Assembly: GCA_021161465.1 (NCBI GenBank)
Contig: JAGHAM010000036.1
Location: 13,512-77,511, forward strand
Source: Candidatus Iainarchaeum sp.
GTDB taxonomy: Archaea > B1Sed10-29 > WALL01 > JAGHAM01
Direction: 5' to 3'
DNA length: 64,000 nt
In this document: one piece after another, positions 7,098 to 45,150 of the stretch
Numbering within the stretch: position 1 is the stretch's first letter
Layout: each line of letters opens with the position of its first letter
Notes under the pieces: model-generated
The model's database searches: none
What the model saw: the letters and a program-made list of their open reading frames with translations, nothing else
What the model was told of the DNA's origin: nothing
Translations under genes and position numbers: made by a program

Positions 7098-7139
7098 ACC
7101 TGGCCACCTCTAACCGTTTTTACATTGTTTTTGGTTTTC

Positions 7140-8225: not shown

Positions 8226-8230
8226 TTAAA

Positions 8231-9361: not shown

Positions 9362-9924
9362 CGTTTACACACCCCAACAAAATTCTCAAATATCTTTTCC
9401 CCATACTTTGTATGCTCCACTTCCGGGTGGAACTGAATACCATATAATGGCATCTTTTTGTGCCTCATTGCTTCTATCTTGCAATCACGTGATTTAGCCA
9501 GCACCTCAAATCCAGGTGCGCTTGTTACTTCATCATTGTGGGAAGCCCAGGCCGTGAATTTTTTAGGTATTCCCTTAAATAAATCATTTTCATTCAGGAC
9601 TTCTATTTCAACTTGCCCGTATTCTGGAATTTTCGCTGGTTCACTGGTCCCACCGAAATGAATGGCCATGAACTGATGACCCGCGCATAGCCCAACTATT
9701 GGCTTGCCTAAGTTATCGAGGTAGGAGGCAACATGTTTGACAATTTTCTCACCACCACTCCCTATGCGGACGGCCCCGCCGGAAAGCACCAGACCATCGA
9801 CATCCCCTAACTTTTCTATCGGTGTGTCAGGCTCAATTATAGCTGACTCACACCCAAGGTAGTTAAGCCGTCTCCAGATTCTATGGGTCCATTGCCCACC
9901 AAGGTTAACTACAAGGATTTTCAT
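9358..9924 (-). CDS. guaAA: GMP synthase glutamine amidotransferase subunit A
   Basis: Class I GATase motifs (GLCAGHQ, HPE). Small split-type subunit. Confidence 0.85.
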   Translation of the reverse strand: MKILVVNLGGQWTHRIWRRLNYLGCESAIIEPDTPIEKLGDVDGLVLSGGAVRIGSGGEKIVKHVASYLDNLGKPIVGLCAGHQFMAIHFGGTSEPAKIPEYGQVEIEVLNENDLFKGIPKKFTAWASHNDEVTSAPGFEVLAKSRDCKIEAMRHKKMPLYGIQFHPEVEHTKYGEKIFENFVGVCKR

Positions 9925-10880: not shown

Positions 10881-11751
10881 GTTCCCTCCCAGTTAACCTC
10901 TTGTATATATCCAGATATCTCCTGCTGGTTTCGGATACAACTTCCTCTGGCAGCTCTGGTGCAGGCGGCTCCCTGTTCCAACTGCTTTTCAACAAGTACT
11001 GCCTCAGATACTCTTTATCCAATGATTCTGGGGCGGTACCTAGTTCATACCTGTCCATTGGCCAGAACCGTGAGGAGTCAGGAGTCAGGAGTTCATCTAT
11101 GAGAATAAGCTCGCCATCAACCCTACCAAATTCAAACTTCGTGTCAGCTATTATTATACCTCTTTTTTCAGCGTATTCACTCGCCTTTAAGTATATCTCA
11201 ATACTTTTCTCCTTGAGTTCTTTAGCTGTTTCCTTTCCGACAATAGCCTCAAGCTGTTCCATGGAAATGTTCTCATCATGACCGGATGTAGCTTTCGTTG
11301 ATGGTGTGAAAAGGGGTTCTTCAAACTTTTCTGCCTCCTTCAAACCTTTTGGCAACTTAATCCCACATATCTCACCTGTCTTCTTGTAGCTCCTCCAACC
11401 AGAGCCAGCAAGGTACCCCCTAATTACACACTCAACTGGCAGGGGCTCGCTTTTCTTTACTATTATGCTCCTATTTCTTAGCTCGTCAAAACGGGCTTCT
11501 TGAGGAAACTTCTCAAAATCGGATTCCAGGATATGGTTGTTTATGACATCTTTCATTTTGTTAAACCAGAACAAAGATAACTGATTTAGGCATTTGCCCT
11601 TGTGTGGGATTCCCGTTGGAAATACAACATCAAAAGCCGATATCCTATCAGTAGCTATGAACAACAGGTTATCCCCTATTTCGTATATGTCCCTCACTTT
11701 GCCACGTTTCCACAACTTAAGCGGAATTTTTGTTTCAAGTAATACATCCAT
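10870..11751 (-). CDS. purC: phosphoribosylaminoimidazole-succinocarboxamide (SAICAR) synthase
   Basis: [15 protein letters not shown] motif. Start trimmed to MDVLLETK to avoid overlap with purQ. Confidence 0.85.
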
Positions 11752-11761
11752 TTCATTCACC

Positions 11762-12511
11762 CTAAAACTTGCTTGCGTATTTAACAAACCCCCTGAAAAA
11801 CTGTAGGCCGTCGCCCTCTTCATTGATTTTTCCTCTCGTCCAGCTTGGGTGCATCCACCCATGGACAAACCTTTCTGGATGTGGCATCATTCCAAACACA
11901 TTACCTTCTGGATTGCTAACTCCTGCAATGTTTTCAACAGAGCCATTTGGATTCTCAACGTATTTAAACACTATTTGCTTGTTGGAGTTCATCTCTTTTA
12001 TGGTTTCCTTATCCACTATAAATCTTCCTTCTGCATGGGCAATTGGCAGGTATACCCCCTTTTTCACATCTTGTAGGAACTTGCAGGCATGGTTCTTTAC
12101 TGGCTTTAGGTGAACCCATTCATCCTTGAATACCCCGCTATCATTGAATGCAAGTGTGGCATCCTGTTTTATGAATGGCCCATCTATAGCAGGTAGCAGC
12201 CAAGATTTTACGAGGGCCTGGAAGCCATTGCATATGCCCATTATTGGCTTTCCCTCTTCTACGAAAGCCCTGACTTCATTACCCATAAGATATTTTATCT
12301 GGTTTGCTAGTATCACGCCTGCGGATATATCATCACCATGGGAGAATCCTCCAGGTATTATGAGGCCCTGGTAATCCTCTATGCCTTTCTGACCTTTCAT
12401 CAGCGCGTTTATGTGGACTAGTTCAGGCTCAGCACCAGCTAGCCTGAGGGCATTGGCTGTTTCCAGTTCGCAGTTTGTTCCCTCAACTCGAAGTACCAGC
12501 ACTTTTACCAT
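11762..12511 (-). CDS. purQ: phosphoribosylformylglycinamidine synthase I (glutaminase subunit)
   Basis: MVKVLVLRVEGTNCE... GICNGFQ catalytic Cys and HAEGRF/HPER His motifs. Confidence 0.85.
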   Translation of the reverse strand: MVKVLVLRVEGTNCELETANALRLAGAEPELVHINALMKGQKGIEDYQGLIIPGGFSHGDDISAGVILANQIKYLMGNEVRAFVEEGKPIMGICNGFQALVKSWLLPAIDGPFIKQDATLAFNDSGVFKDEWVHLKPVKNHACKFLQDVKKGVYLPIAHAEGRFIVDKETIKEMNSNKQIVFKYVENPNGSVENIAGVSNPEGNVFGMMPHPERFVHGWMHPSWTRGKINEEGDGLQFFRGFVKYASKF

Positions 12512-14856: not shown

Positions 14857-15324
14857 CTAGACCCTCACATATCGGTAATTATGAATTAGTGGGTTACAAA
14901 GGACCTTTTCGCAAACAGTCCTCAGTTCGCTCTCTGTTAACTTTCCTTTGATGATGTAACTGAATGCACTTTCAACACGTTCAACACCATGTATCCCAAT
15001 TAGTGCCATAGCTTTCATCGCGCTTTCCCCAACAGCATCGGTGACACCCGTTTTGCTTTTGACCTGAACCAGCCAAGCATTTTTTTCAGTTATGAGCTTA
15101 AGGCTATCTCCTTCATGCGTGTATGAGAAATCTTGTGTTATTGGGTCAACAAACAACTCTTTACATGCTCTTAGGATTTCTGGCTCGCCTACTGTCCCAT
15201 ATATGAAGTAGACATACATGGTTTCAACACGTTCTACATGGAGCCTAAGGTCATGTATCTCACCTTTTTTCATAATGCCTATTGGGTCATAATCAGGTCG
15301 TTTGTACGTTACACCAACTATCAA
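14857..15324 (-). CDS. purS: PurS-like protein, apparent tandem duplication of the PurS fold
   Basis: 155 aa, about twice PurS length. Second half (VQVKSKTGVTDAVGESAMKAMALIGIHGVERVESAFSY...CEKVLCNPLIHNY) matches the PurS pattern. Sits between purL and purM. Confidence 0.6.
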   Translation of the reverse strand: MIVGVTYKRPDYDPIGIMKKGEIHDLRLHVERVETMYVYFIYGTVGEPEILRACKELFVDPITQDFSYTHEGDSLKLITEKNAWLVQVKSKTGVTDAVGESAMKAMALIGIHGVERVESAFSYIIKGKLTESELRTVCEKVLCNPLIHNYRYVRV

Positions 15325-15336
15325 GAAAATTTCCCC

Positions 15337-16368
15337 CTAAAGCACCAATTCCTTGGTCTTGTATTTTACCACTATCTTTTTCTGCGGTATCACCTTGCCT
15401 ATTATCTCAGGACCAAATTCATCGCCAATCATATCAACACATCTCACCGCATCCTCACGATTTACCACTAGGGCAAAACCCCATCCAAGGTTGAATGTCT
15501 TGAACATCTCATCGTCAGCTATACCACCAATCTGCTGTATCAGTTCAAATATGGGCTGTGGATGAAAGTTGTCGAACTCAAACCCGACACCGAGTTTATG
15601 GAATTTCAGGTAAGCATCCCCTGTTATGTGGACAGCTCCTAAGACTTCTATTTCTTTCATGACTTTCATCACTGGTCTAACGTAAATTTTGGTTGGCTTG
15701 AGGACTTCATATATGAGCTCTTTGTCCAATGGCTCTGGCTTCTCAAAAGGGTCATACCTCCCACCCCACTCTTTGAATAAAACTTTCCTGACGAGACTTA
15801 TACCGTTGCTGTGGACACCAGAGCTTTTGAGTCCTATAACAACGTTACCTGGTTTTATCTTTGAGCCATCTACTATTTTCTCCTCTTTAACTTCTCCGAC
15901 GCAATCGCAGTTTATGTGATATTCAGCCTGCATCAGCTCGGGGACGTCAGCAGTCTCCCCACCTATCAATGGACACCCTGCTTCTGATGCCCCACTATTC
16001 AATCCTTTCAACAGTTCCCCAAAAAGCCCAGGCTCGCTTTTCTTTAGGTCGATTACATCTGTTATGGCAAGCGGTTCTGCACCGGAGCGTATGCAGTCAT
16101 TTGCGACCATAGCTACTGCATCTACACCAATAGTGTCGTGCTTCTCAGCAAGCTGGGCAAGCAGGACTTTCGTTCCAACACCATCTGACGTTTTTACCTG
16201 ATACCTACCATCACCAATAGGGTACAGAACGTTGAATGGCGTTTCAACAACAGGACCATACTTGCTGAATGAGTATGTTTCCTTTAACTCAACCAGATGC
16301 TTTTTTGCTTTCTCCCTTAACTTCCTGTCTACACCTGAATCAGAGTATGTTAAAGGCATTTTTCCCAC
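15337..16368 (-). CDS. purM: phosphoribosylformylglycinamidine cyclo-ligase (AIR synthase)
   Basis: SGVDRK..., VGTKVLLA, AIRS N/C domains. Confidence 0.9.
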   Translation of the reverse strand: MGKMPLTYSDSGVDRKLREKAKKHLVELKETYSFSKYGPVVETPFNVLYPIGDGRYQVKTSDGVGTKVLLAQLAEKHDTIGVDAVAMVANDCIRSGAEPLAITDVIDLKKSEPGLFGELLKGLNSGASEAGCPLIGGETADVPELMQAEYHINCDCVGEVKEEKIVDGSKIKPGNVVIGLKSSGVHSNGISLVRKVLFKEWGGRYDPFEKPEPLDKELIYEVLKPTKIYVRPVMKVMKEIEVLGAVHITGDAYLKFHKLGVGFEFDNFHPQPIFELIQQIGGIADDEMFKTFNLGWGFALVVNREDAVRCVDMIGDEFGPEIIGKVIPQKKIVVKYKTKELVL

Positions 16369-17690
16369 TTCCTCACGACTTCACGGGTTTTCTTCCTGGC
16401 AAGCCCTATGTAGTTCTCAGGTTTCATTATCTTGTCTAGCTCTTTTCTGCTTAGGTATTTCATGACAGTTTTATCCTTTGCCAGGACATCTTTCAATGGT
16501 ATGTCTTCCTTTAGGCTTTTCATGCTGGCTTTCCTCAGAAGTTCATGTGCTTCCTGCCTTTCAAGACCTTTAGCCGCTAGCAGGGTGGTTACTGCTTCAG
16601 CCATTATTCTGCCTTTGGTCAAGTCAAGGTTCTCCTTCATCTTCTCTGGGAATACTTGAAGGTTGTTTAGTACTCTTATCATACGGTCGGTCATGTCATC
16701 TAACAGCAGGAAGACTGTTGGGAACACCGAGCGCTCGGCGGCAGAGTTAGTCAAATCCCTCTCATGCTCAAGTGCAATATTCTCCAGGGCCGGCAGGACA
16801 CAGGAACGCACCACACGGGCGTTGCTGCATACGTTCTCACAGTTTATTGGGTTTCTCTTTTGTGGCATGGCTGAGCTACCAACCTGCTCTTTTCCGAACC
16901 CCTCACTTACTTCAGCGATTTCCGTTCGCTGCAGGTTCCTAATCTCCTTCGCGATTTGTTCCAGTGTGCCAGCCATTATTGCCATGTCAGAAACCAACAT
17001 TGCAATGTCCTCTCTTGGAACAACCTGCGTGCTTATTTCTGCTGCATCCAGGTCAAGCCTCTTCATTATTTTCCTCTCTATGCCAGCAACCCCAAACAGT
17101 TTTTGGGCAGCGTAAGTTCCGGTTGCCCCAGAGAATTTCCCCCTAAGGGAGAAGTAGTCACTCAGCAGGTTGTGCAAGTCATATCCAACTTTGTCAACGT
17201 AGTTGGCAAGCTTGAAACCAAAAGTTATTGGTGTCGCATGTTGACCATGGGTCCTACCCACCATCGCCGTGTTTTCATACTTTAGTGACAGGTCCATAAG
17301 CACCCTCATAAGGACTCTCCCTTTCTCCAGGAGGATAGTCAAGCCCTCCTTTAGCTGGAGAGCCAGGGCGGTGTCAACTATGTCATAGCTGGTTGCAGTT
17401 AAGTGAACATATCTTGCGGTTTTAGGTGAGCACTGTTCCGACAGAGCCTTCACCATTGCCATCACATCGTGTTTTGTCTTGCGCTCTATTTCCTTCACCC
17501 GCTCAAGCTTCACATTCTTTGCTTTTACTCTGATTTCCTTGGCAGCTGTTTTTGGTGCTTTTCCCATATCAGCAAGGGCTTCCACCAGCGCGACTTCAAC
17601 ATCCAGCATTCTCTTAAGTCTGGTTTCCTCGTCGAATACCCTTCTCATCTCTTCGGAGCCGTAACGATAGTCTATTGGATGAACACTCAT
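16350..17690 (-). CDS. purB: adenylosuccinate lyase
   Basis: [14 protein letters not shown] start and fumarase/ASL signature [11 protein letters not shown]. Confidence 0.9.
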
Positions 17691-18154
17691 TTTCTCACCT
17701 TCTCGTCAGACTTCTCAACCTTCTCTCGCATCTTCGCGCGATAGTCTTCCAACTTCTCCCTCAGCTCGGGATGCTTTAAAGCCAAGATTTCTACAGCAAG
17801 TAACGCTGCGTTATCGCCTCGATCAACACCAACGGTAGCTACCGGTATCCCTGGCGGCATCTGCATTATTGACAACAATGCGTCCAATCCCTCTAACTTT
17901 GCATTCACAGGGACACCAATTACAGGCTTCGTCGTATGAGCTGCAACTACTCCAGGTAGAGCAGCAGCAAGCCCAGCGATTGCTATAAAAACATTAGCGT
18001 CAGATTCCTTTACAATCTTTTCAAGTTTTTCCGGAGTCCTATGCGCGGACGCCACCCTTATCTCATTTGAAATTTCAAAAGCGTTTAAAACAGAGATGCA
18101 TTTGTCTGCTACGGGTTTGTCCGACTCCGAACCAAGAATAATAAGAACTTTCAT
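17687..18154 (-). CDS. purE: N5-CAIR mutase / AIR carboxylase catalytic subunit
   Basis: [12 protein letters not shown]...ASAHRTP...[13 protein letters not shown] motifs. Start at internal Met. The N-terminal 25 codons of the ORF are treated as spurious. Confidence 0.85.
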
Positions 18155-18303
18155 CAAATCCCCCACAGGTTTTGTTATAGTGCCTAGGGTTTTTATAATT
18201 TTGTTTGTGGTTAGTTGGCATAGTCCCAAAACGAGTGGAAGCGCCTTAGGGCGGTGGAAAACGGGTTTAGTTGATACAACTGACGGGTTAAGGATAAAGG
18301 CAA

Positions 18304-19566
18304 TTAGTGAGGCACTTTTCTTCCCTTTGTTTTGAAACCATGTTTGGATAAGTTCCTCAATCGTTTTATTGGGCAGTAACTATCGCACATTGAACAAGGG
18401 TTTTCATTCGTTAGCCTGTATCTCTCAAGCTTTGATGGGTCTATGGCATACTTGTGTTGTACGCTCCAGTTTAGTTCAGAGCGCGCTTTTGACATACTGT
18501 GGTCCTTGCCTATATCTATACCCCTAGTTATATCAGCAGCGTGGGCAGCTATCTTTGATGCCACCACACCAAGCCTAACGTCATCTTTTCCAGGCAAACC
18601 CATATGCTCTGATGGGGTTACGTAGCAAAGGAAGTCGGCACCATAGAATGCGGCTAAGGCACCGCCAATAGCCCCAACAATGTGGTCGTAGCCGACACCT
18701 ATGTCAGTCACCAGCGGGCCTAAAACATAGAAAGGCGCGCCTGAACACAGTTTTTTCTCAAGTGCAACATTCTTTTCTATACCATCTAATGGTATGTGCC
18801 CCGGCCCTTCCACCATGGTTTGTACACTAGCTTTTCTGGCTCTTTTCACAAGCTTCCCAAGTATTTCAAGCTCTTTCAGCTGTGCTTTGTCAGTTGCATC
18901 GTATATCGCGCCAGGCCTTAGCCCATCACCAAGACTCAATGTGGCGTCATACTTCTTTGCCAACTCTAAAAGATAGTCAAAGTTCTCGTAAAGAGGGTTC
19001 TCCTCGCCAGTTTTTAGTATATACTCTGCTATAAGCCCCCCTCCTCTACTGACAACAGGAATCATCCTCTTATTCCTCTTTAAAACACCAACACTTTCTT
19101 TAGTTACACCACAATGAACCGTTACAAAATCAACGCCATCTTTAAGGTGCCTCTCAACAGCCTTGAAGACACAGTCTTCGCTTATGCTCCTACAGTCATA
19201 GACGGGAACAGTCCCTAACGGGGCTTTAACTGACTTTATCACAGCCTTCCTGGTCTTACGCGCTTTTGAACCAATGCTTAAGTCCATGATTGTATCGGCG
19301 CCATAGGACACTGCCGTTAATGCTTTTTTCACCTCGGTTGCAGTGTTGCTGCGCGTTTCTGAAACGCCAATGTTGGCATTGACTTTCACCCGCAGGCCTT
19401 TCCCCACCCCTACAACAGGGATATCTCTCACTACGTTCTTTAAAACAACAATCCTACCAGCAGCTATTTCCTTCTTTAGGAATTTGCGAGTAACTCCTTC
19501 TTTTTTTGCCAGCTCGTTGACCTCAGGGCTAGTCTGCCCTCTCTTTGCCTCAACCATTTGTAGCAT
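18304..19566 (-). CDS. thiC: phosphomethylpyrimidine synthase
   Basis: ThiC core (NANIGVSE..., YVTPSEH) and C-terminal CxxCxxxxC cluster (CSMCDSYC). Confidence 0.9.
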
Positions 19567-19580
19567 TAGCTCACCCCTAA

Positions 19581-21836
<2,256 letters not shown>

Positions 21837-21840
<4 letters not shown>

Positions 21841-23096
21841 AGAACCAACAGACTAGCATATAATGCAATGCTGAAGACCGTTGCACCCGCCAACATATCC
21901 AGGAAAGAGTCCTTGATGATTTCAAGTGCTTTGTAAAACCACATTAAAGGTATTGCCCCAAACAAAAGCTCACTTAACGAAGCGGCAGCAAACCCAACCA
22001 CAACCATGTCAGCAGTTATGGCCTTGGTGCTACCCAGTATAGCCAATGAGGCAACCGTCGAGGCGCCGCTTACTAGGCCGCCAAGTATTATCGTAGGTAT
22101 GAATGCATCCGGGAAATAATGCGTGAATAGCTCGATTATGATTATCATGAGAAATAACTTTATCGAAAGCCCAATGGCGTGCATCACGTCGAAAGGAGAC
22201 TTAATCTTTAGCACTGTTTTTTTAGAGCTTCTCAACCTCCTGTAACCTAGCAGGGCAAGTGCAAAAAAGCCCAGGAAGGCAGCCGGGGAGAGTTTTACAA
22301 TCAGCACAGGCATGAATACGCCCACTAGAGCTAGGTTCCTCAGCAGAATTGAAGCGTTCAATGTTATCAGCGACCCCCCAACAAGATTTATATCCTTGGT
22401 TTTCTTGTAGATTTGGATTAACGGGCTGCAGCTTGCCTTCTGGCTTATTAGCCCCCCCAGGAAACCAATCAGTTCGACACATTTCCTTGCGGTTAGTAGT
22501 CTTGAGCCTATGAAGCCGACTAGGTTTATGATTGAGATTAACACAACCAGCAGCCACAACGAACGTAGGTCAAGACTTATGCCAGCGAAGTTGATTGGTG
22601 CTAGGGGTATGAATGGGTAAACTATGCCAATGACCACCATGAACTCAATAAGGTCCAGCATCTCCTTCTGGGTTAAGTGCCTGACTACTCTGTGGAGTTT
22701 CTCCCTTGCGAATAAGATTAAAACAACGATGACCGCTATGAAAACTGCTTCCGCATAACAGTTTATGGAAACGAGGGCACCCATGGCATATGCTAGTAGA
22801 AGCGATATTGTTGTTGTCAGGCCTATCTCCTGAAACTTAAATAGGTTGCCGATATAGAGAGCCAGAGCTAGAAGCCCAATAGCAAGAAAGCCAAGTACAG
22901 GCAGGTAATCAGCACTCATCAGTTCCGGTCCAGCTAGAATGCCTAGGACGCATCCAAGGAGGGAGATAAGCGAGAAGGTTCTAAGCCCAGCTATCTCCTG
23001 GTGTTTTGAATGCTCCCTTTCGAGCCCCATCAGCGCGCCTATCAATGTTGCCAGGACTATCTTTTGGGTAAATTCAAGTCCGATTAGAAAATCCAT
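21837..23096 (-). CDS. MgtC/SapB-family membrane protein with C-terminal DUF4010-like extension
   Basis: MgtC N-terminal signature (ATLIGALMGLEREHS...AGLRT) and multiple TM helices. Confidence 0.6.
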
Positions 23097-23100
23097 TCAA

Positions 23101-23874
23101 TCACTGTTTCGCGTTTTTGATTGCGTTCTTGAATTTTTGTACAGTTTCCTTAACGTTTTTGTTCCCTTCCATCAGCGTACCTATCTGGATTGCATTAGCT
23201 CCTGCCTTCACTATGTTTTTAGCTTCATCAAGTTTTCTTATTCCACCGCCAACTATGTAGGGAACATCTATGGTCTCTGCCACTGCCTTCACCATCTCAA
23301 TTGGCATTGGCCCCTGTGGGCTTGCCGAGCCGCAATCAGTTAGTATGAACCTGTTTCCCATATACTGGCCAGCCAGGGCGAGGGCAGCGGCTATGTTTGG
23401 TCTCCAGCGTGGGACCAGATTGGCATTTCCAACCCACCCAACGCTTCCACCTGGCTCTATTACTATGTAGCCAGTTGGTAATGGCTCAAGGCCATAACTC
23501 TTTATCACAGGCGCGCTTATGGTCTGGGCTGTGGATAACCAGTAAGGGTCACGCGAGTTGAGCATAGTCATAAAGTAAATGGAGTCTGCATGCTTTGTTA
23601 TGGTTGCAACGTTTCCAGGGAACAGGTTTATCGGCACGTTTACGTTTTCCCGTATAAGCTTGGTTGTTGTGTCAAGTAACTCACCCTGTGCACCTATGCT
23701 ACCCCCAACAAGGATGAGGTCCGCCCCGCCCTCAACACTTTCTTTCGCAACCTGTGCAGCGACATCCGGGCTAGGATGGTCACACGGGTCGATTAAAATC
23801 ATGAGCATGCCTTCTCCCCGTTCTTTGTAGTCACCTATGTAACGCTCCACTTTGCCTGGTTTCATCAAATTCAC
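23101..23874 (-). CDS. geranylgeranylglyceryl phosphate synthase (PcrB/GGGPS family)
   Basis: TIM-barrel GGGPS motifs (LILVGGS, IVGGGIR). Archaeal ether-lipid enzyme. Confidence 0.8.
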   Translation of the reverse strand: MNLMKPGKVERYIGDYKERGEGMLMILIDPCDHPSPDVAAQVAKESVEGGADLILVGGSIGAQGELLDTTTKLIRENVNVPINLFPGNVATITKHADSIYFMTMLNSRDPYWLSTAQTISAPVIKSYGLEPLPTGYIVIEPGGSVGWVGNANLVPRWRPNIAAALALAGQYMGNRFILTDCGSASPQGPMPIEMVKAVAETIDVPYIVGGGIRKLDEAKNIVKAGANAIQIGTLMEGNKNVKETVQKFKNAIKNAKQ

Positions 23875-28805: not shown

Positions 28806-28958
28806 ATGAGAAAAGACATAAGTAAAGTTATTGATAGTTATAGGAAGGGGGATATAAGCTTATTCGAGGCTTCTAGGATTGTTGATATGCATCCAAGTGA
28901 ATTCCTGGAATTATTGGTGAGAAGAAATAAGGTTGAAGTTGCTTACAGTTCATTTTAG
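28806..28958 (+). CDS. UPF0175-like small HTH protein (possible antitoxin-like)
   Basis: ISLFEASRIVDMHPSEFLELL resembles the UPF0175 motif. Start taken at MRKDIS within ORF 28731..28958. Confidence 0.35.
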   Translation: MRKDISKVIDSYRKGDISLFEASRIVDMHPSEFLELLVRRNKVEVAYSSF

Positions 28959-29213
28959 TAGGGTTTCATCAACAACAATTACGTCGCTAACGGCGAAAAC
29001 CGCTTTGAACGGTATTGCAACGAAGTCATCCTCAGTTCTGGGTAAATTCTTGGCTGTTTTGCTCTCCTCAGCTGGTTCAACAAGGAAAGTTTCGAGAACA
29101 CCAGTGTGTTCATCGAATTGAATATCACTAAGCCTGCCAATCTCTTCTCCTTTGTTTGTTATAACTCGCTTCCCTCCTAATTGTTTTGCAATAGCGAATT
29201 TCCTCGTAGCCAT
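28950..29213 (-). CDS. PRC-barrel domain protein
   Basis: GKRVITNKGEEIGRLSDIQFDEHTGVLETFLV matches the PRC barrel. Confidence 0.7.
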   Translation of the reverse strand: MATRKFAIAKQLGGKRVITNKGEEIGRLSDIQFDEHTGVLETFLVEPAEESKTAKNLPRTEDDFVAIPFKAVFAVSDVIVVDETLLK

Positions 29214-29236: not shown

Positions 29237-30955
29237 CTAAAAGCCTATAAAAGCTTTTCGCTGGTTCTTGATGAAGAATACACCCACTGATATCAAAAGG
29301 AGTACAAACATTAAGACTAATGGATTCGGGTATTCATCAGCCATATACTCTTCTCTTCCTTCAACAGAAACCTCAGTAATAGTGGAGTTCAGTACAGAGC
29401 TACCCAACTTATCATAAAGTGTTGTGTTAATGGTATATCTTCCAGGGATTGTAGGCTTCCACTCAAACAACTCCTTTCTCATCTTTTTTCCAGGTAATAC
29501 CTTCTCAATTGAGGACTGAGAATAAACCACTTGCTTATTTTCATCTGTTATCACAATAGTTAGGTTGTAAGAAGTGCTTTGGCTCTCCCCCCTATTTTTT
29601 ACTGTTACTACACTCTTAGTTTTTACTCCTGTTATAAATGGCTTCACGAGTTCAACATTTTCTACAACTAGGTTTGCTTGAGTGCCTCCATGTGGGTGTA
29701 CGTGTAGTAAAGAAGTGTCAACATCTTGAGAACCCTCAGGATTCGTAACGGTTAACTGGAGGTTGTAATCTCCAACATCGGGGCAAATCAAGGGAGACTT
29801 TGCACCAGTTAAAGGTAGAGTCCAAGAACCATTAGTAACGGTCCAAGAGTAGGTCAAAGAGTGGCAGATTCCGCCTCCAGGACAGTAATTTGCGTCAGTT
29901 GAGCCGGTACCATCTAATTCTACATTCTCTCCACGAATACATTCGTAGGGCCCATTTGCATCTGCAACTGGCCTTGAACCGCACGTACAGTCTGCTTTAC
30001 ACAAGCCTGGGCAGACCGAATCATCGTTGCCATCACACTCTTCTCCACAGTTCCTCTTTCCATCACCACAATGATTAGGACAACTGCTGCAGTAGAGTGA
30101 GCCCGTAAAGTACCTACTTGTGCATTTTGAAGAGTAACAGCCTTTTCTTACGAACCTTTGGTTGTTATAATCACAGTGACTTTTGGTATTGCATAATTTG
30201 TAGTTGCACCACTCTACACAAGAGTCTGAATCGCAATCTTTACATTCCTGTAGGGTGCTGCCTAAACATCTCAGCTCTCCAGCATTACACTCATCCGTAC
30301 AGACCGGTCCACAATCTTGCGGACATGTTTCCTTGGTTTCATTACAATCACAAAGACCGTTGGGACAGTGTTTACACGTATTACAATACTCTTCTCCATG
30401 GATGACCCTCCCAATTACCACAACCCCATTCACAGTGTTGAATCTACAATAATCATCATAACAATGGTAACATAGGAGTGCCTGATTCTTACAAGTTAAA
30501 GCACAGCATCCCTCTACACATTCTGCTCCTTTACATTTGTTTTCTCCAACACAGGATGAAAAATTAGAATATGTTGACCAAGAAACACCGCTGCAGTACC
30601 CAAGGAGTCCTCTTTCGTTTCCGCATGCGTACCTCCTGTGGACATATCTATCTGCATGAAGGCAGGACCCTACACATTCCCTTCCCGCATAAGTATCCGA
30701 TGATGGATGGCACGGACCAGCAACACATTCCGGGCTGCCGTTGATCATCTCGCAATGACTATCAGCTCCTGTGCAATACCCACTACAGTACCCGTCTATA
30801 TCACAACTCTCTCCAGGTTTACAATCGGCATCTGTCTGGCACTTTTGTGAAGTTATGTACAAGCACTCAGTGTCACAACAATTGTGGCACAAGTGAGAAA
30901 AAGAAAAAGGAACAAAGAGTAGATAACATAATAGGAAAACAAAAAGCTTCTTCAT
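29237..30955 (-). CDS. secreted cysteine-rich surface protein: signal peptide, about 330 aa Cys-rich region with disintegrin-like CGDG..GEECD motif, PKD-like and CARDB-like domains, C-terminal TM anchor
   Basis: MKKLFVFLLCYLLFVPFSFS signal. More than 60 Cys in the N-terminal third. CGDGKRNCGEECDGNDDSVCPGLC. PKD-like (LDGTGSTD...YSWTV). CARDB-like (VKPFITGVKTKSVVTVKNRGESQSTSYNLTI). Final hydrophobic segment plus KNQRK. Confidence 0.6.
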   Translation of the reverse strand: MKKLFVFLLCYLLFVPFSFSHLCHNCCDTECLYITSQKCQTDADCKPGESCDIDGYCSGYCTGADSHCEMINGSPECVAGPCHPSSDTYAGRECVGSCLHADRYVHRRYACGNERGLLGYCSGVSWSTYSNFSSCVGENKCKGAECVEGCCALTCKNQALLCYHCYDDYCRFNTVNGVVVIGRVIHGEEYCNTCKHCPNGLCDCNETKETCPQDCGPVCTDECNAGELRCLGSTLQECKDCDSDSCVEWCNYKLCNTKSHCDYNNQRFVRKGCYSSKCTSRYFTGSLYCSSCPNHCGDGKRNCGEECDGNDDSVCPGLCKADCTCGSRPVADANGPYECIRGENVELDGTGSTDANYCPGGGICHSLTYSWTVTNGSWTLPLTGAKSPLICPDVGDYNLQLTVTNPEGSQDVDTSLLHVHPHGGTQANLVVENVELVKPFITGVKTKSVVTVKNRGESQSTSYNLTIVITDENKQVVYSQSSIEKVLPGKKMRKELFEWKPTIPGRYTINTTLYDKLGSSVLNSTITEVSVEGREEYMADEYPNPLVLMFVLLLISVGVFFIKNQRKAFIGF

Positions 30956-31671
30956 TTGTTCCCCTCACTCAAACTGATTTTAACATGGTTCTTCTCAATG
31001 GAATCAATTTTCAATGAGTGCTGTTTATCTAACTCACATACTTTTGAAAGGTCTAGTGTTGAACCATTCAATAGAGCATAAAACGAGAAATTCCCATGGC
31101 AAGAAACACCAAGGATAACCATATTTTTAGAACGATCCACATTTTCAACAATGATTTTAACATCTGTTTCTTTTATATGAAGACAAGTGGTCTCATTGAG
31201 GGTCAGATTGCCATGGCTCTTCTCACTGCATGGGTCAGTCAATAGGAGGAGTACTTTGTCACTAGAGATTTCCGACACATTCACATCTAGGAATAACACC
31301 CTATGTTTTCCCTCAGGCAATTGTCTAACTGTTGAGTAGCCACCTACAGACCATACAAAATTCATAAGAGCGGGATTTCCAGCTCTCTCTAAGTCAATCT
31401 CATATTTATCAATTTCAGCACTCTGACCTCTGCAAAGATAAAATTTTTTATCGAAATGAGCCTGAACAACAGGTGGAGGGTTGAAACAAATGCACTCTTC
31501 TTCAGGGAAGTCTTGCGGACAGTTGCTGCAGTTTTCTCCGTCATCTACTTTTCCATTACCACAGGAAAGCAGGTGTTGTTTAGGTATATGTAGGAGATGA
31601 TAAACTACAAGGCTTAGTATAAGTAAAGAAAAGACAAGAAAAATACCAACTAAAATACGAAACTTATCCAT
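30952..31671 (-). CDS. secreted/membrane-anchored protein with disintegrin-like CGNG..GENC motif; co-operonic with 29237..30955
   Basis: N-terminal TM. LLSCGNGKVDDGENCSNCPQDF shares its motif with the downstream gene. 4-nt stop/start overlap. Confidence 0.5.
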   Translation of the reverse strand: MDKFRILVGIFLVFSLLILSLVVYHLLHIPKQHLLSCGNGKVDDGENCSNCPQDFPEEECICFNPPPVVQAHFDKKFYLCRGQSAEIDKYEIDLERAGNPALMNFVWSVGGYSTVRQLPEGKHRVLFLDVNVSEISSDKVLLLLTDPCSEKSHGNLTLNETTCLHIKETDVKIIVENVDRSKNMVILGVSCHGNFSFYALLNGSTLDLSKVCELDKQHSLKIDSIEKNHVKISLSEGNK

Positions 31672-31729
31672 CCATAAGTGACTATTGAGTTTTAGTATAT
31701 ATTTTTAACTATTGCTTACTCTTTAATTT

Positions 31730-32716
31730 ATGAAACTTCATAAAAATGCTATGATTTCGGAGTCACTTAGGAAGGAGCTTACACATCAGCATTACAGGTT
31801 GGCTGGCGCGCATTCGGCAGTAAAGCTATGCCACTGGACTAAACATAGCCTTTTGGAAAACCGCTACTGCTACAAACAGAAGTTCTATGGCATCCAGAGC
31901 CATCGCTGCCTCCAAATGACCCCTGCAATAGCATGGTGCAATCAGAGGTGCCTTTACTGCTGGAGAACGCACAAGCTGGTAACGCCGGATATCAAATGGG
32001 ATGACCCAGAAACAGTGATAGAGGAAAGTATCAAGGCACAGAGGGTGCTGCTTACAGGATATTATGGGCTTCTGGATAGGGTTGACAAGGCAAAGCTTGA
32101 AGAAGCAATGAATCCAAACCAGGTAGCGATAAGTTTAGCCGGCGAGCCGACTCTTTACCCGTATCTCAGCGGCCTAATTGAAGCCTTTACCAAGCGCGAT
32201 TTTAGCACTTTCCTTGTGACAAATGGGCTTAGGCCGCAAGTTCTAGCAGAGCTAGCTCTGCCAACACAGCTTTATGTCTCCCTGAGCGCGCCGAACGAGG
32301 AGATACATAAGAAGCTGAATGTGCCGATGATACCAAACAGCTGGAAACTGTTGAATGAAACACTTAAGCTTTTTCCATCTCTGGATACCCGAAAAGTCAT
32401 AAGGATAACCCTTGTTAAAGGCTGGAACGACGTGCATCCAGAGCTTTATGCCAAGCTGATAAGCAAAGCTAGCCCCGATTTCATCGAGGTTAAGGCGTAT
32501 ATGTTCGTTGGCGATTCAAGGAGGAGAATGACAATAGCTAACATGCCAAGGCATGGGGAAGTTGTTGCTTTCACTAGGCTGCTTGAGAACGAGCTACCAG
32601 ACTACAAGCTGATAGATGAGAAAGAAGACTCGCGTGTTGTGCTTTTGAGTAATGGCAGGAAAACTTCCCTGATAGGCGAGGCTGAAAAACATGAGCAAAA
32701 AACCAAAGAATATTAG
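31730..32716 (+). CDS. taw1: tRNA 4-demethylwyosine synthase (radical SAM, Taw1/TYW1)
   Basis: Auxiliary Cys (HSAVKLCHWTK) plus radical-SAM CNQRCLYCWR, and TYW1-family similarity throughout. Confidence 0.85.
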   Translation: MKLHKNAMISESLRKELTHQHYRLAGAHSAVKLCHWTKHSLLENRYCYKQKFYGIQSHRCLQMTPAIAWCNQRCLYCWRTHKLVTPDIKWDDPETVIEESIKAQRVLLTGYYGLLDRVDKAKLEEAMNPNQVAISLAGEPTLYPYLSGLIEAFTKRDFSTFLVTNGLRPQVLAELALPTQLYVSLSAPNEEIHKKLNVPMIPNSWKLLNETLKLFPSLDTRKVIRITLVKGWNDVHPELYAKLISKASPDFIEVKAYMFVGDSRRRMTIANMPRHGEVVAFTRLLENELPDYKLIDEKEDSRVVLLSNGRKTSLIGEAEKHEQKTKEY

Positions 32717-33245
32717 TGAGTTAGTGCACGAGAGCATAGAGGTTAGGAAGGGTCTAACTAGTGGGAATCATCTATCCTATGTTGTTGTTAAAAAGGAGCC
32801 AGAGGGATTTCTTAAAGGCATTGAAAACAAGGAGCTCGAAAGACAGGTTGCCAACTACATAAAGGAAAAGAAACTGGGACAAGTTGACATTGAATTTAGG
32901 AGAGTGAAGGAGTTGGTTAAAGCCCCCAACCCTAACAAGAGGCTCACGCCAAGTGAGGTAAGGAGATTAGGGCTTAATGAGGGTGACCTCGTTGCCGAAA
33001 TAACTGATTTTTTCCCACTTCACGATGTACCTAACGAATACTATCATAGACACTTTGAGCATGGGATGCATGTTGGTGACAAGGTGCTTGATAAGATTCT
33101 AACCAACTTAAAGGAAAAACACAAAATAAAAGCAGTTTTTGCAGACACACGGATGGAAAAAATGCAAGGGTTGCTAGAGTCCAGGGGCTTCAAAAGGGGG
33201 AGGAAGGGTACTGAGAGGGAACATGTATTTGTGAGGAGATTATAA
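32691..33245 (+). CDS. hypothetical basic protein (184 aa)
   Basis: ORF overlapping the taw1 stop. No known motif recognised. Confidence 0.35.
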   Translation: MSKKPKNISELVHESIEVRKGLTSGNHLSYVVVKKEPEGFLKGIENKELERQVANYIKEKKLGQVDIEFRRVKELVKAPNPNKRLTPSEVRRLGLNEGDLVAEITDFFPLHDVPNEYYHRHFEHGMHVGDKVLDKILTNLKEKHKIKAVFADTRMEKMQGLLESRGFKRGRKGTEREHVFVRRL

Positions 33246-33321: not shown

Positions 33322-34029
33322 ATGGAAAAACCAAGAGGGCGCGTCCGGGAAAAATTGGGGAAAGCAGGCAGGACCATAAAGAAAATCATAGAGCCTGTCC
33401 ACTTCGATGAGCCAGTGAATAGTATAGATTCTAGGGCAAAGATTGGACAGATTAAAAAGAAACCAAAGAAATACGAATCATTTAGGGAGCTTGTGGAGGA
33501 TAACATAATAATTAAGAAATCATACCCATCTCACTCTAATACATACCTTAGATTTGATGTTTTCAAGAAGAAGGCCAGCGGAGATTTTGTTAAAGGCGCG
33601 TCAGAAAAAAGATTGAAAACTGTTTTGGATAAAATGAAAGTGCACCTAGGCGAAAAAAAGTTAGGTAGTGTGGGTGTAGAATATGGTCTTTTGTCATCTT
33701 TTGGGGATATTATCCACGAGGAAGGAAAGAAAGCTGGATTGGGGGGTCTGGATAAGGTTGCCAAGATAGACTGGTTCCGCCCGTCACACAGAATCAACAA
33801 ACTATCCCGCAAGGAGATAATCAGAGAAAAAGTCCTCGATGAGATAATAAAGTTTATGCGAAATGAGCATGAAATCCGAAGAATTCACATTATAAATCCT
33901 CCTGAAGATTTAGTGGAACTTGCTGAGAAAAAAGGCTTTAAGGAGCTCAAACCAAGCGGAGATGTCCGCATAATGGTCAAGGACTTCAAGAAACGAAAGC
34001 AGAAACAAGAGCTGAACTGGTTCCACTAG
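33322..34029 (+). CDS. hypothetical lysine-rich protein (235 aa)
   Basis: ORF only. Confidence 0.35.
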   Translation: MEKPRGRVREKLGKAGRTIKKIIEPVHFDEPVNSIDSRAKIGQIKKKPKKYESFRELVEDNIIIKKSYPSHSNTYLRFDVFKKKASGDFVKGASEKRLKTVLDKMKVHLGEKKLGSVGVEYGLLSSFGDIIHEEGKKAGLGGLDKVAKIDWFRPSHRINKLSRKEIIREKVLDEIIKFMRNEHEIRRIHIINPPEDLVELAEKKGFKELKPSGDVRIMVKDFKKRKQKQELNWFH

Positions 34030-41644: not shown

Positions 41645-42147
41645 TGCGATGTTTCATAGGGGTTCCTTTAACAGACAATGTCAGGAAAGGCCTCTCTGAA
41701 ATGCAGAAGAGGCTAAAGCACTCTTCCACAAAGATGAAGCTAGTCGAGCCGGAGAATCTACACATAACTTTAAGGTTCCTTGGTGAGATTGCTGATGTGG
41801 AAGTAGCCAAACCCTTGCTGGAGGGCATATCCATTAAAAAGTTTCATGTTCAATTTACCCACATTGGCGCATTCCCTAGCAGGGATTATATACGTGTCGT
41901 TTGGGCTGGCGTTGGCCAGGGGAGGGATGAGTTAGTTGAACTTTACAAGGCAGTTGGCGGGAAAAATAGCCTCGAGCCGCATGTAACCTTAGCTCGTGTG
42001 AAAACTAAACCCGATGCGCTGCTGTTGGAGATGTTAGATGAAAAATTAGATTTATCTATGGATGCTGAGAGGGTGCAGCTAATCGAGAGCAAGTTAACCC
42101 CAACTGGCCCAATATACTCAAAGGTGTTTGAAGTTGAATTTGACTAA
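41644..42147 (+). CDS. thpR: RNA 2',3'-cyclic phosphodiesterase (2H phosphoesterase, ThpR/LigT)
   Basis: Two HxT/S motifs (HITLRF, HVTLAR). Confidence 0.8.
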   Translation: MRCFIGVPLTDNVRKGLSEMQKRLKHSSTKMKLVEPENLHITLRFLGEIADVEVAKPLLEGISIKKFHVQFTHIGAFPSRDYIRVVWAGVGQGRDELVELYKAVGGKNSLEPHVTLARVKTKPDALLLEMLDEKLDLSMDAERVQLIESKLTPTGPIYSKVFEVEFD

Positions 42148-43660
42148 ACTGGCTGTAGCGATGTTGTTAATCTGTGCGACCTCATCAGCCCTTACCATGC
42201 TCGGGAAAACACCAAACGGAACCATGCTGCTCGCGAACAAGAACTATGTAGTGGAGATGGATCCAGCCAACAATACGCTTAACATCAATAACATTATCTC
42301 GGTTTATATGTTCCCAAAAGGCAGGATTCTTGGTACTGATATAAAGCCACTGGAGCCATCCTTTGGAGACATACATACTGGAGAGCAGGTTGAAAGGTAT
42401 ATTGTGGAATACCCCCCCTCAATCGCAAAGAATGTTTACATATCATCAAAAATAAACTTTGAGGATAAGTTCATACGACAGGAGATAACAATTGAAAACA
42501 CTCAGAGCAGCAAACTTGATATAACCCTAAGACTTTCCCAGCAAAAGAACAGGAGCTACTACGTATTCGCGCCGTTCACAAATAATCCCCTTATGAACCA
42601 TATGTGGATTTCTCCAAGTTTTAATCAGGAGAAGGGATTGGGCCTAGCAGTTTATTTCGATTCTGAGAATCCAACTTACTCTCAGACAGGAGAGGTAAGC
42701 CGTGTGGATAACTCTGGTGGCCTTTTGAATTGGAGGCTGTCTGTACCAGCCGGTGAAACAAGGACTATTATAGTTAAGTACATCCTAGGTTATGTTGCAG
42801 ATTCAACACTTCTAAGGTCGCATGCATTTAAAATCCCCTCTACAAAACAGCACCTGCTTGATACAGAAACTGATGCATTGTTCAGCTTCAAGAACGATGA
42901 TGCACTCTCATCAATGCTCGATGGAATAAACGGTAAGAATCCCGGGGAAGTCTTTGATGAAACAAAGAGGGCTATGGGCCAGATTATGAATTCACCTGTG
43001 GAGGCAACTGTCTTAACAACAAACGTAAATTTCCAGGAGCTTGTCAGCAAACAGCAGCTTAATAGCCTGGAAAAGGCTTTGCTATTCAGGAAGCTCATTG
43101 AGGAGAAGGGCATCCCTGCTGAGCTTAACATAGGGATTAAAGGCGGGAGTTATTATGCGTGGGTCAAGGCATACCCAACCATAGAGCCTCTTGTTTACGA
43201 CCCGGCTGGTGGCATGTCCGCTAGCAGGGAAATATACTCTGACCCTACCCCCATCTATTGCAACTCAAACATTGGTAGCTGCAATTGGGCGGGTAGCATA
43301 AAGACAGATGTTGTGTGTATACTTAACCTTTGTTCTTCAGTTTATCTGCTGTCTGCTGTAATACTCATACTCATAATCGCTCTGTTCTTATTGCTGCAAT
43401 ACAAGGCGAATGCCCTGTACAAAGTGCTTGGCAAGAAGAAGACAGGACAGGACATATCACAGATTGATGGCAGCTACATGGTATTGAATGAGAACTTCAC
43501 ACCCGACAATCCACTTGAAGATGCTGTGCTAAAAGAGATAAAGTCAACCATGGGTTCTGTTAAGCTTAGTGACTATACAAGAAAGACTGGGTTCTCCAGT
43601 TTTCTGATTGCTGCAGCCATCGAAAGTCTTATGGAAAAGAAAGTCATAAAAAAGCTTTAA
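42128..43660 (+). CDS. secreted protein with signal peptide and C-terminal TM anchor
   Basis: N-terminal hydrophobic leader. C-terminal LLSAVILILIIALFLLL. Glycosylation sequons. Confidence 0.45.
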   Translation: MKLNLTKLAVAMLLICATSSALTMLGKTPNGTMLLANKNYVVEMDPANNTLNINNIISVYMFPKGRILGTDIKPLEPSFGDIHTGEQVERYIVEYPPSIAKNVYISSKINFEDKFIRQEITIENTQSSKLDITLRLSQQKNRSYYVFAPFTNNPLMNHMWISPSFNQEKGLGLAVYFDSENPTYSQTGEVSRVDNSGGLLNWRLSVPAGETRTIIVKYILGYVADSTLLRSHAFKIPSTKQHLLDTETDALFSFKNDDALSSMLDGINGKNPGEVFDETKRAMGQIMNSPVEATVLTTNVNFQELVSKQQLNSLEKALLFRKLIEEKGIPAELNIGIKGGSYYAWVKAYPTIEPLVYDPAGGMSASREIYSDPTPIYCNSNIGSCNWAGSIKTDVVCILNLCSSVYLLSAVILILIIALFLLLQYKANALYKVLGKKKTGQDISQIDGSYMVLNENFTPDNPLEDAVLKEIKSTMGSVKLSDYTRKTGFSSFLIAAAIESLMEKKVIKKL

Positions 43661-45150
43661 AATGAGGCAATTTTGTTCAGGAAACTATCCTTGTCGGTGT
43701 AAAACTCGTTGGACATCCTCATGATGTCCTCATAGGACACTTTCTGTTTTTTCATCCATTCAAGTATGCCTTCTCTAAGCTTAAGCTCTTCTGTAACCTC
43801 GTTTTTAGTCATACCACAGGTAAATGCTAGTTTCTCAATGGTTTGCGATGGTAGCTGTGTCCTTGAGATGGAGTCTCTTCCTTTGTCCCATTTGTAGATG
43901 CCGTTCAGCAATATCTGGTCACCCATCCAGCTTACCTCTGAAACCTCAGTTACTCTCCTAACAACCCGTCCACCTTCTCCTTTGAACCTGTGTTGTATCA
44001 CTATGAGGTCAAGGAGGGATAGCAGCTGTTTGTGCACATTCATTGGAGGGGACTCCAACCGTAGCACTGTTTCCTTGGCATCATTTGCATGCAATGTTCC
44101 CATCGAGCCAGAGATACCAACATCCATGGCAGTGAAGAGTGAAGTGGCTTCCTCACCGCGCACTTCCCCAACTAGTATCCTATCCGGCCTCATCCTCAAC
44201 GATGCTTTGACAAGGTCGTTCATGGTTATAGTGGTCTTACTTTTGTAGTCATACGTTGCCTCTAGCTGAACCCAGTTATCCCTTGAGCCTAAATTAAGCT
44301 CGAGAGTGTCTTCTATGGTTAGGACTCTGTTGTCATAAGGTATGAAACCAGATATAGCATTTAGGGTTGTTGTTTTTCCACTACCTGCCCCACCACTTAT
44401 GATTAGGTTCATTGGGCTTACCTTCATGCCTTCCACAGCAAGCCACAGGAAGGCAGCAAGCTCGGTTGATACAGTTCCAAAGTTGATTAAGTCAACTATG
44501 GAGAACGGGCGGAATGTGAATTTCCTTATGGTTAAGCTTGGGCTCACGGATGCCGGAGGAATAGCTATGTTAACCCTGGAGCCATCAGGAAGTCGGGTGT
44601 CTATCAGGGGGCTTGATCTACTCAACTCTTTTCCGCTGGAGCTTGAGATCCGGCTTAATAGCACTAAGAGTTTCTCCTGCGAGTGGAAAACAAGATTGGT
44701 CTTGCATGGGCCCTCTTTTCTGTGTACAACCCATACTGGTCTGTCAATACCATTTACAATAATTTCTTCTAGGTGCTGGTCGTGCAGGAGAGGAGTTAAT
44801 TTTCCAACACCACAGAGCATGTTTGTTACTTCCTCAACTAGGTTGTCCTTGTTTTTCGACTTTGGTAGGTATTTATTGACGAATTTGCTGACAATCTCTT
44901 TTTTCCCTTCTAGCTCGGAGGAATCAAACAGGACATCATGTATTTTCAGCTTGTTAAGCAGCTGATTTTCAATGGAATGCAGCCAAGCTCCAGCTTTTTT
45001 GTTTGATAAAAATATCTGTTCTATTTCCTCAACTGAGAATTCCTTCAGTGCCAACTTTGAAACCACATCTAAAAAGAGCTGCTCTTCGTCCGTAAATTCA
45101 GGCCTTTTAAGCAGATAATACTTCTGACCTTTTTTCTCAACTATACGCAT
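43657..45150 (-). CDS. type II/IV secretion system ATPase (FlaI/PilB/VirB11 family)
   Basis: Walker A IISGGAGSGKTT. Asp box, His box and Walker B present. Family assignment from the SGKTT Walker A and overall architecture. Confidence 0.85.
   Translation of the reverse strand: MRIVEKKGQKYYLLKRPEFTDEEQLFLDVVSKLALKEFSVEEIEQIFLSNKKAGAWLHSIENQLLNKLKIHDVLFDSSELEGKKEIVSKFVNKYLPKSKNKDNLVEEVTNMLCGVGKLTPLLHDQHLEEIIVNGIDRPVWVVHRKEGPCKTNLVFHSQEKLLVLLSRISSSSGKELSRSSPLIDTRLPDGSRVNIAIPPASVSPSLTIRKFTFRPFSIVDLINFGTVSTELAAFLWLAVEGMKVSPMNLIISGGAGSGKTTTLNAISGFIPYDNRVLTIEDTLELNLGSRDNWVQLEATYDYKSKTTITMNDLVKASLRMRPDRILVGEVRGEEATSLFTAMDVGISGSMGTLHANDAKETVLRLESPPMNVHKQLLSLLDLIVIQHRFKGEGGRVVRRVTEVSEVSWMGDQILLNGIYKWDKGRDSISRTQLPSQTIEKLAFTCGMTKNEVTEELKLREGILEWMKKQKVSYEDIMRMSNEFYTDKDSFLNKIASF

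Follow-up and report, generated by a model that had tools for sequence, protein, structure and literature searches.

The 'shoulder' (Ds) subdomain of the ADAM proteases and the P-III snake venom metalloproteases (SVMPs) comprises 34 residues (403-436) with three disulfides and holds a buried structural Ca2+, referred to as site II, through the consensus XCGN(X)3EXGEXCD (PMC4885070). A loop motif of this type is also encoded by an archaeon, in a 64,000-nucleotide stretch of contig JAGHAM010000036.1 (referred to below as the window) which belongs to a metagenome-assembled genome of Candidatus Diapherotrites, a DPANN lineage. The motif occurs in the products of two adjacent genes, A and B, which are the only long frames with CG[DN]G in the window. 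Both proteins are present in the public databases from this genome only, where A carries the NCBI product name 'PKD domain-containing protein [Candidatus Diapherotrites archaeon]' and B is a 'hypothetical protein'. The portion of A that bears the motif, here termed module 1, has a Ca2+-loop motif in common with the Ds subdomain, is of equal size and in part has the same Cys spacing, but it does not amount to a disintegrin domain. As a whole the locus is best understood, with rather better than even confidence, as encoding a co-expressed DPANN surface pair, in which A would be a disulfide-knotted, Ca2+-stabilised adhesin or envelope protein and B its partner in the membrane.

The Ds subdomain is represented by structures of ADAM10 (2ao7, 6be6), the K-like SVMP (3k7n), RVV-X (2e3x) and bitistatin (2mop). 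Like these, module 1 of A is a 34-residue, all-turn module in a predicted extracellular, disulfide-rich context, with O-donors at the four ligand positions. It differs from them in having CDG where ADAM has CDCG, in the exchange of N for D and of E for N at two of the ligand positions, and in its second half, DDxxCPGxCxxDCTC, which is not significantly similar. Unlike the ADAMs and SVMPs, A possesses no arm, disintegrin loop, Ca site III, cysteine-rich domain or reprolysin protease. A second described family is the DUF4215 or Myxococcus cysteine-rich repeat (PF13948, TIGR02232, IPR011936), which like module 1 is a six-Cys repeat of about 30-40 amino acids that opens CG[DN]G..E.GE.CD.GN and is arrayed in tandem in proteins secreted by bacteria and, in some cases, eukaryotes. 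Module 1 is set apart, however, by its second half, CPGxCxxDCTC, a distinct and well conserved signature, and the Pfam model of DUF4215 misses most members of the module 1 family.

Counterparts of A at the level of the whole protein are found among the surface proteins of DPANN archaea and among the large, Cys-rich extracellular proteins of Peribacteria in the Candidate Phyla Radiation (CPR), which resemble Myxococcus repeats and pappalysin-1 and have been proposed to mediate attachment (PMC4736985). Like A, these combine a signal peptide, Cys-rich modules, beta-sandwich domains and a C-terminal transmembrane helix. The DPANN/CPR look-alikes of A, P0103 (Nanoarchaeota/Aenigmatarchaeota), P0070 and P0016 (Paceibacterota), have in common with it the short motif CG[DN]GxC..E..CPxDC and a second repeat, module 2, and they come from small-celled, probably symbiotic hosts. 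The CPR proteins average about 1650 amino acids and about 7% Cys, whereas A is much smaller (572 amino acids) and contains 10% Cys; module 1 was not seen in the DPANN relatives, the N-terminal 175 residues of A are an orphan region, and no orthologue was found. The PKD/CARDB surface proteins of archaea likewise carry a PKD and a CARDB-like domain beside a membrane anchor, but they are mostly not Cys-rich, and the beta-sandwiches of A make up only about one third of its ectodomain. A and B are full-length orphans of a recognised kind, the Cys-rich, immunoglobulin (Ig)-domain surface proteins of ultra-small prokaryotes, and what is new here are two unannotated repeat families and a specific, testable match to Ca2+ site II of ADAM.

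Module 1 and Ca2+ site II of the ADAM shoulder

An exhaustive phmmer search with A 22-327 as query against 1.84 billion representative proteins returned 102 matches, every one of which falls on either of two short segments, module 1 or module 2, with E-values that reach 3.8e-50 via module 1. In A (294-327) module 1 reads CGDGKRNCGEECDG..CPG.C..DCTC and it is one instance of a 30-31-amino-acid, six-Cys repeat with the consensus CGDGvVNqpgEeCDGaDDaaCPGaCraDCTC, of which a pattern count finds 235 copies in 67 proteins and up to 14 in a single bacterial protein. The copy in A is 41-68% identical to 104 other copies and scores 44.0 bits against the profile built from all 105, its own included. It shows the Cys spacing, the G/E/D columns and the CPG and DCTC signatures of the family, and carries a seventh Cys, C303, beyond the family's six. 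The CG[DN]G motif of A is not a chance occurrence, because it lies within a 34-residue module that reaches this score against the family profile. The AlphaFold2 model of module 1 has a predicted local distance difference test score (pLDDT) of 83.4. The two modules were aligned separately; a joint MAFFT alignment of A 186-330 and the matched fragments had placed module 2 onto module 1.

Weak matches to DUF4215 were obtained with 9 of the 105 module 1 copies (best 0.026), and two whole proteins in a subset of 38 module 1 relatives reach 8.3e-6, but the copy in A is matched neither by PF13948 nor by NCBIfam at E<=10, which indicates that DUF4215 is a family related to module 1 of which A's copy is not a member. 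In bacteria the module 1 arrays lie between or beside CBM96, galactose-binding-like, phytase, beta-helix and laminin-G domains, the Ca2+-binding RTX and TSP3 repeats, PKD domains and IPTL-CTERM sorting signals. Since these arrays belong to secreted and often carbohydrate-directed proteins, a role as rigid spacer or stalk would fit. The relatives of both modules are named 'hypothetical protein' or after an attached catalytic domain, and in the relatives scanned no Pfam model covers either module. Both repeat families, found in proteins secreted by Myxococcota, other Deltaproteobacteria, CPR and DPANN, deserve profile models. A further protein with module 1 copies, P0091 (653 amino acids, from a JGI metagenome), also contains a GEVED domain and ends in ...PIPEFSTIGIIIALAAIGIGLTVIIKKRK; this end resembles a PEF-CTERM-type archaeosortase signal, and if it is one, module 1 would be present in further archaea.

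The original prediction, made from the sequence of the window, had likened the motifs of the two proteins to the conserved start of the disintegrin domain. The motifs are present as quoted, CGDGKRNCGEECDGND at A 296-311 and CGNGKVDDGENCSNC at B 37-51, and the likeness is robust at the profile level, but it is confined to about 15 residues that correspond to site II of the ADAM shoulder. When the module 1 profile is run against all PDB sequences, ADAM or disintegrin chains take all of the first nine places among distinct sequences (E 0.013-0.09), namely bitistatin and the K-like SVMP (both E 0.013), ADAM17 (E 0.045) and six ADAM10 constructs (E 0.024-0.09), followed by a conotoxin at E 0.32. 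The alignments with bitistatin, the K-like SVMP and three of the ADAM10 constructs are ungapped and run from the CGN motif which opens the disintegrin domain. HHalign comparison of module 1 with eight ADAM/disintegrin shoulder segments, three of which came from the PDB search, gives 97.1% probability (P-value 6.9e-11), and with those three segments alone it gives 96.5% (P-value 9.8e-10), whereas the equally Cys-rich module 2 profile, which serves as a control, gives 0.4% against the eight segments (P-value 0.14). The HHalign score of 41.9 compares with 9.5 +/- 2.4 (maximum 16.6) over 200 column shuffles of the ADAM alignment. No gap is needed over the 32-33 aligned columns, in which five of the six Cys columns fall on Cys of ADAM. 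If both alignments are split after CD, the first 15 columns alone score 38.1, while the second halves score 10.2 and fall within their shuffle null of 8.8 +/- 2.5.

A 295-308, HCGDGKRNCGEECD, leaves the strict site II consensus unmatched, but fits it once the two exchanges named above, both of which retain an O-donor, are admitted. D298, N302, E305 and D308 provide O-donors at all four side-chain ligand positions of ADAM. Across the module 1 family the ligand columns (D/N, E/D/N, E and D) are the best conserved columns other than Cys, and the ligand position which is left unconstrained by the regular expression is E, D, N or Q in 92 of 103 copies. Judged by these residues, Ca2+ is probably bound at the module 1 loop of A as it is at site II of ADAM.

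Architecture of proteins A and B

The two open reading frames on the minus strand are as the original prediction had placed them, and its reading of A as a surface-exposed, membrane-anchored, PKD-bearing protein which is probably co-transcribed with B is upheld. The cysteine counts were set too high. A contains 57 Cys (10%), 54 of them within the first 340 residues, in place of more than 60, and B, which had been described as extremely cysteine-rich, contains 10 (4.2%). The cysteines of A include five CxxC and two CC pairs. With the predicted signal peptide removed, mature A would have 56 Cys, an even number, from which up to 28 disulfides are to be expected, and these would make for a rigid, protease-resistant ectodomain. 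Hydropathy bears out the C-terminal membrane anchor that had been proposed, and also an N-terminal signal peptide. The features of both proteins and of their immediate surroundings are collected in the table.

Table. Positions of the A/B locus features in the window and in the encoded proteins
Feature	Residues	Window positions	Strand	Description
Gene A		29237-30955	minus	Open reading frame of 572 amino acids
A, N-terminus	1-21	30893-30955	minus	Predicted signal peptide (MKK, hydrophobic core, cleavage between SFS and H); by hydropathy, cleavage site by eye
A, head	22-196	30368-30892	minus	Orphan Cys-rich head, 27 Cys
A, module 2	197-263	30167-30367	minus	Short motif CPNGLCDCNETKETCPQDC, then one module 2 copy
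A, module 1	294-327	29975-30076	minus	Module 1, NHCGDGKRNCGEECDGNDDSVCPGLCKADCTCGS
A, PKD	328-414	29714-29974	minus	PKD domain
A, CARDB-like	427-511	29423-29677	minus	CARDB-like beta-sandwich, sub-threshold
A, C-terminus	541-566	29258-29335	minus	Predicted transmembrane anchor, then basic tail KNQRK; hydropathy mean 2.57
Gene B		30952-31671	minus	Open reading frame of 239 amino acids
B, N-terminus	1-31	31579-31671	minus	Hydrophobic signal anchor or signal peptide; Kyte-Doolittle window mean 2.92
B, Cys motif	36-62	31486-31566	minus	Short Cys motif SCGNGKVDDGENCSNCPQDFPEEECIC
B, ectodomain	63-239	30955-31485	minus	Predicted beta-rich ectodomain without fold assignment
Candidate promoter element		31695-31708	minus	TATA-box-like AT-rich element TTAAAAATATATAC, about 25-35 nt upstream of the B ATG; by eye, archaeal TATA consensus
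PRC-barrel gene		28950-29213	minus	87 amino acids; Pfam PRC E 7.4e-12

The N-terminal head of A (22-196) has no relative in the exhaustive phmmer search, in which nothing was matched over query positions 1-160. Self-blast finds no internal repeat in this region or elsewhere in A or B, and the module 1 and module 2 profiles find no further degenerate copies in the head. The segment that follows it contains module 2, a tandem repeat of the pattern C.DEC..G..RC.G....CG.YD.D.C.EW...C..GE.C, which in A takes the form C.DEC..G..RC.G....C.D.D.D.C.EW.. and scores 57.8 bits against a profile made of 220 copies from other proteins, with the invariant Cys, D and W retained. Secreted proteins that carry module 2 come from Myxococcota, Paceibacterota (CPR) and DPANN, among them P0008, P0011, P0016, P0023, P0031, P0034 and P0084, and as many as about 15 stretches are matched in a single protein. 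The AlphaFold2 model of the module (pLDDT 80) is a small, three-stranded, disulfide-rich unit, for which a fold search of the PDB finds nothing at E<=0.001, and module 2 has neither a significant PDB sequence match nor a Pfam model; these missing fold and sequence matches rule out an identity with EGF, TNFR or furin modules. The CPNGLCDCNETKETCPQDC element in front of module 2 recurs as CG[DN]GxC..E..CPxDC in Nanoarchaeota/Aenigmatarchaeota, in Paceibacterota and in a 'PGF-pre-PGF' protein.

Of the two beta-sandwich domains that had been predicted for A, PKD lies above the Pfam gathering threshold (PF00801, 28.3 bits against a cut-off of 23.5, residues 367-414), with PKD_4 and K319L-like PKD also matching under their cut-offs, whereas CARDB stays below it (PF07705, 19.2 bits against a cut-off of 22.7, E 1.5e-3). 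When A is compared with PDB sequences by phmmer only weak PKD/Ig-type matches are obtained, such as the collagenase PKD 4jrw at E 0.12. PKD and CARDB are the only families found in Pfam and NCBIfam scans of A, B, the isolated motif segments, the Cys-rich region and P0002. Since its relatives share this layout and the CPR proteins offer a precedent for attachment, A is read as a putative type-I membrane-anchored, Cys-rich surface protein.

B 36-49, SCGNGKVDDGENCS, fits a relaxed regular expression of ADAM Ca2+ site II except for the last D, which is S. Over these 14 columns only, HHalign gives a Prob of 79.9 against the ADAM segments and 73.7 against module 1. The motif CGNGKVDDGENCSNCPQDF is of the short CG[DN]GxC..E..CPxDC type known from surface proteins of DPANN and CPR but lacks two of the Cys positions, and its counterpart in P0070 reads CGNGVCEFSESCSNCPQDC. 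B 37-186 shows weak, collinear similarity to A 296-442 in blastp (24% identity, pairwise E 7e-4), and B could derive from a copy of the module 1-PKD part of A that has diverged and been truncated. B matches no Pfam or NCBIfam family and has no significant match in the PDB; the best, to DddI at E 0.56, was judged spurious.

A proposed membrane-anchored surface pair and its alternatives

It is proposed that A is exported by its signal peptide and kept in the membrane by its C-terminal helix. Outward from the membrane, the CARDB-like and PKD beta-sandwiches would form a stalk, followed by the single, disulfide-bonded module 1 of 34 residues, whose loop CGDGKRNCGEECD, the ADAM/SVMP site II sequence, probably acts as a Ca2+-locked joint. 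Outermost would be a disulfide-knotted head of about 270 residues, made up of the module shared with Myxococcota, CPR and DPANN proteins and of the orphan region. A would most likely serve in attachment or in the architecture of the envelope, with a surface, a polysaccharide or a partner cell as what it binds, and attachment is plausible by analogy with the CPR proteins. B, which appears to be translationally coupled and N-terminally anchored and carries half of the loop motif and a putative beta-rich domain, is probably the membrane-proximal partner of A. DPANN and CPR organisms are thought to depend on cell contact and their contact proteins are mostly unannotated. The A/B locus would give a compact example with parts that can be named; it reveals no new mechanism.

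Several observations weigh against the proposal of a Ca2+-stabilised surface pair. The adhesive role of A is an analogy. Among 5.8 billion proteins a word-indexed search with A returned A itself and one weak repeat protein, with no full-length homologue, and B was matched by itself alone; because full-length homologues are lacking for both, the conservation of the gene pair and its function are without comparative support. At the level of the module, the single copy in A has no PDB match at E<=10 when used by itself and reaches an HHalign Prob of only 66.8 against the ADAM segments. A Foldseek search with the module 1 model gave two PDB matches, PAPP-A2 at E 3.1 (40% identity) and RVV-X at E 9.6, neither of which is significant; the pair may be called suggestive, given that an SVMP and a pappalysin are the two proteins matched. 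Pappalysins carry Myxococcus-type Cys repeats, with which the mention of pappalysin-1 in PMC4736985 is consistent.

The module 1 copies, which run to hundreds and are both bacterial and archaeal, may be true homologues of the ADAM/SVMP shoulder, a tentative interpretation that falls somewhat short of an even chance. If it were correct, the N-terminal third that binds Ca2+ in the disintegrin-like domain of metazoans would descend from a prokaryotic repeat or have been exchanged with one, and A of Diapherotrites would be an archaeal instance of a widespread extracellular repeat without a Pfam model. The disintegrin domain would thereby gain a prokaryotic root and a tandem-repeat model for Ca2+-dependent rigidity. 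No paper was found that connects DUF4215 or Myxococcus repeats with disintegrins, or disintegrins with DPANN, and in the PAPP-A papers examined such repeats are undiscussed.

The strongest alternative, which is rather unlikely but a serious one, is that the CG[DN]G...GE.CD likeness arose by convergence, or by chance, in a short acidic loop flanked by two cysteines, with no common descent and maybe no Ca2+ binding. That 15 columns hold the signal while the second halves stay within the null would favour it, but the alignment continues without a gap for its full 32-33 columns and keeps five of six Cys in register. The PDB E-values are marginal, yet the four ligand positions are the very columns that the module 1 family conserves best after Cys. 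No metalloprotease accompanies module 1 in the 38 relatives; the length of the module, with three disulfides expected, nevertheless equals that of Ds with its three disulfides. Of the two Foldseek matches, non-significant as they are, one falls on a P-III/IV SVMP and the other on a pappalysin. Even under convergence the ligand pattern would predict Ca2+ binding.

Very improbable is an explanation in which the cysteines bind metal or act as redox centres, in the manner of metallothioneins, Fe-S proteins or Zn ribbons, and form no disulfides, and A is a surface protein for metal binding or electron transfer. The CxxC and CC pairs would suit such a protein, and the host is probably anaerobic like many DPANN archaea, a condition in which extracellular disulfides are less favoured. 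However, no metal-cluster family is matched, the sole hint being FhuF_C at E 0.056 with a 35-residue fragment of B, and both modules come from families of secreted, multi-domain bacterial proteins with the invariant, evenly spaced Cys that are typical of disulfide knots. The even number of Cys in mature A and the AlphaFold2 models, which are confident and compact without cofactors, point in the same direction.

Least probable, to the point of being discarded, is that the modules are genuine disintegrin domains which bind an integrin-like or other host receptor by a disintegrin loop: the identity of the motif to the start of the domain is real, bitistatin as a long disintegrin is matched at E 0.013 and the HHalign Prob is 97, but there is a counterpart for the first third only (about 34 of about 76-90 residues). 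A whole-domain disintegrin was rejected because the HHalign signal lies within the first 15 columns, and no ADAM or disintegrin chain in the PDB is matched in any stretch past the first third of the domain. The Ca2+-site-III consensus CD(X)2(E/D)XCXG(X)4C(X)2(D/N) is absent from A and B by regular expression, neither protein contains an RGD or KGD tripeptide, and ECD occurs just once, within GEECD. There is no arm (Da) subdomain with a disintegrin loop, the PKD domain following directly after module 1, and no reprolysin (M12B) metalloprotease domain in A, B or the 38 module 1 relatives. Integrins are not known from prokaryotes, and an integrin-type 'disintegrin' function in archaea is unsupported.

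The comparison with the Pfam profiles that had been suggested as a check gave nothing for these even at E<=10: PF00200 (Disintegrin) matches neither A, B, the isolated motif segments nor the 105 module 1 copies (HMMER filters may hide very weak matches), and EGF/Ca-EGF, TNFR Cys-rich, furin-like and ADAM_CR, as well as DUF4215, match neither the whole of A or B nor the motif segments or the Cys-rich region taken alone. Profile similarity beyond mere Cys richness was what the original prediction had made itself depend upon, and here the outcome is divided, in that no Pfam profile is matched but the similarity to ADAM at the profile level exceeds that of shuffled alignments. The label 'disintegrin module' overstates what A and B hold.

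Genomic setting of the locus

The start codon of A is overlapped by the stop codon TGA of B (ATGA) and is preceded by GAGGGG 8 nt upstream. This arrangement commonly marks translationally coupled genes, and A and B are probably co-transcribed. The divergent intergenic region upstream of B is 58 nt long and contains the TATA-like element TTAAAAATATATAC, a candidate promoter for a B-A transcription unit that would yield a short-leader or leaderless mRNA. On the other side, A is separated by 23 nt from the downstream PRC-barrel gene on the same strand, with no obvious terminator in the gap, and the latter may share a transcript with A and B. The nearby genes are of the housekeeping type (RadA-like, RPA-like OB folds, TYW1, a purine-synthesis cluster and a Rad50-like ATPase), which places the pair outside any obvious mobile island. 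The G+C content at the locus is 0.414-0.415, slightly under the typical value for the window of about 0.44-0.45. ARAGORN found no tRNA genes in the window.

Directly downstream of the TYW1-like radical-SAM gene lie two adjacent plus-strand genes (32691-33245 and 33322-34029) for basic proteins of 184 and 235 amino acids without a Pfam match, which form a paralogous pair (29% identity over 177 amino acids, E 1e-11). The purine genes are part of a long co-directional cluster on the minus strand (about 5541-23874) with PurH (AICARFT/IMPCHase), adenylosuccinate lyase and a PurL-like protein, the last being an AIR-synthase-related protein with an FGAR-AT linker. A purine-biosynthesis cluster deserves attention here, as DPANN genomes are often thought to lack nucleotide synthesis. 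Further along the window, the gene for a T2SSE-family secretion/assembly ATPase (43657-45150, minus strand) converges with an open reading frame of 510 amino acids without a Pfam match (42128-43660, plus strand), their 3' ends overlapping by 4 nt, and the two may be part of a pilus or archaellum-type assembly system. At 61192-62601 the plus strand encodes a radical SAM protein with a SPASM domain, which is typical of peptide or cofactor maturases.

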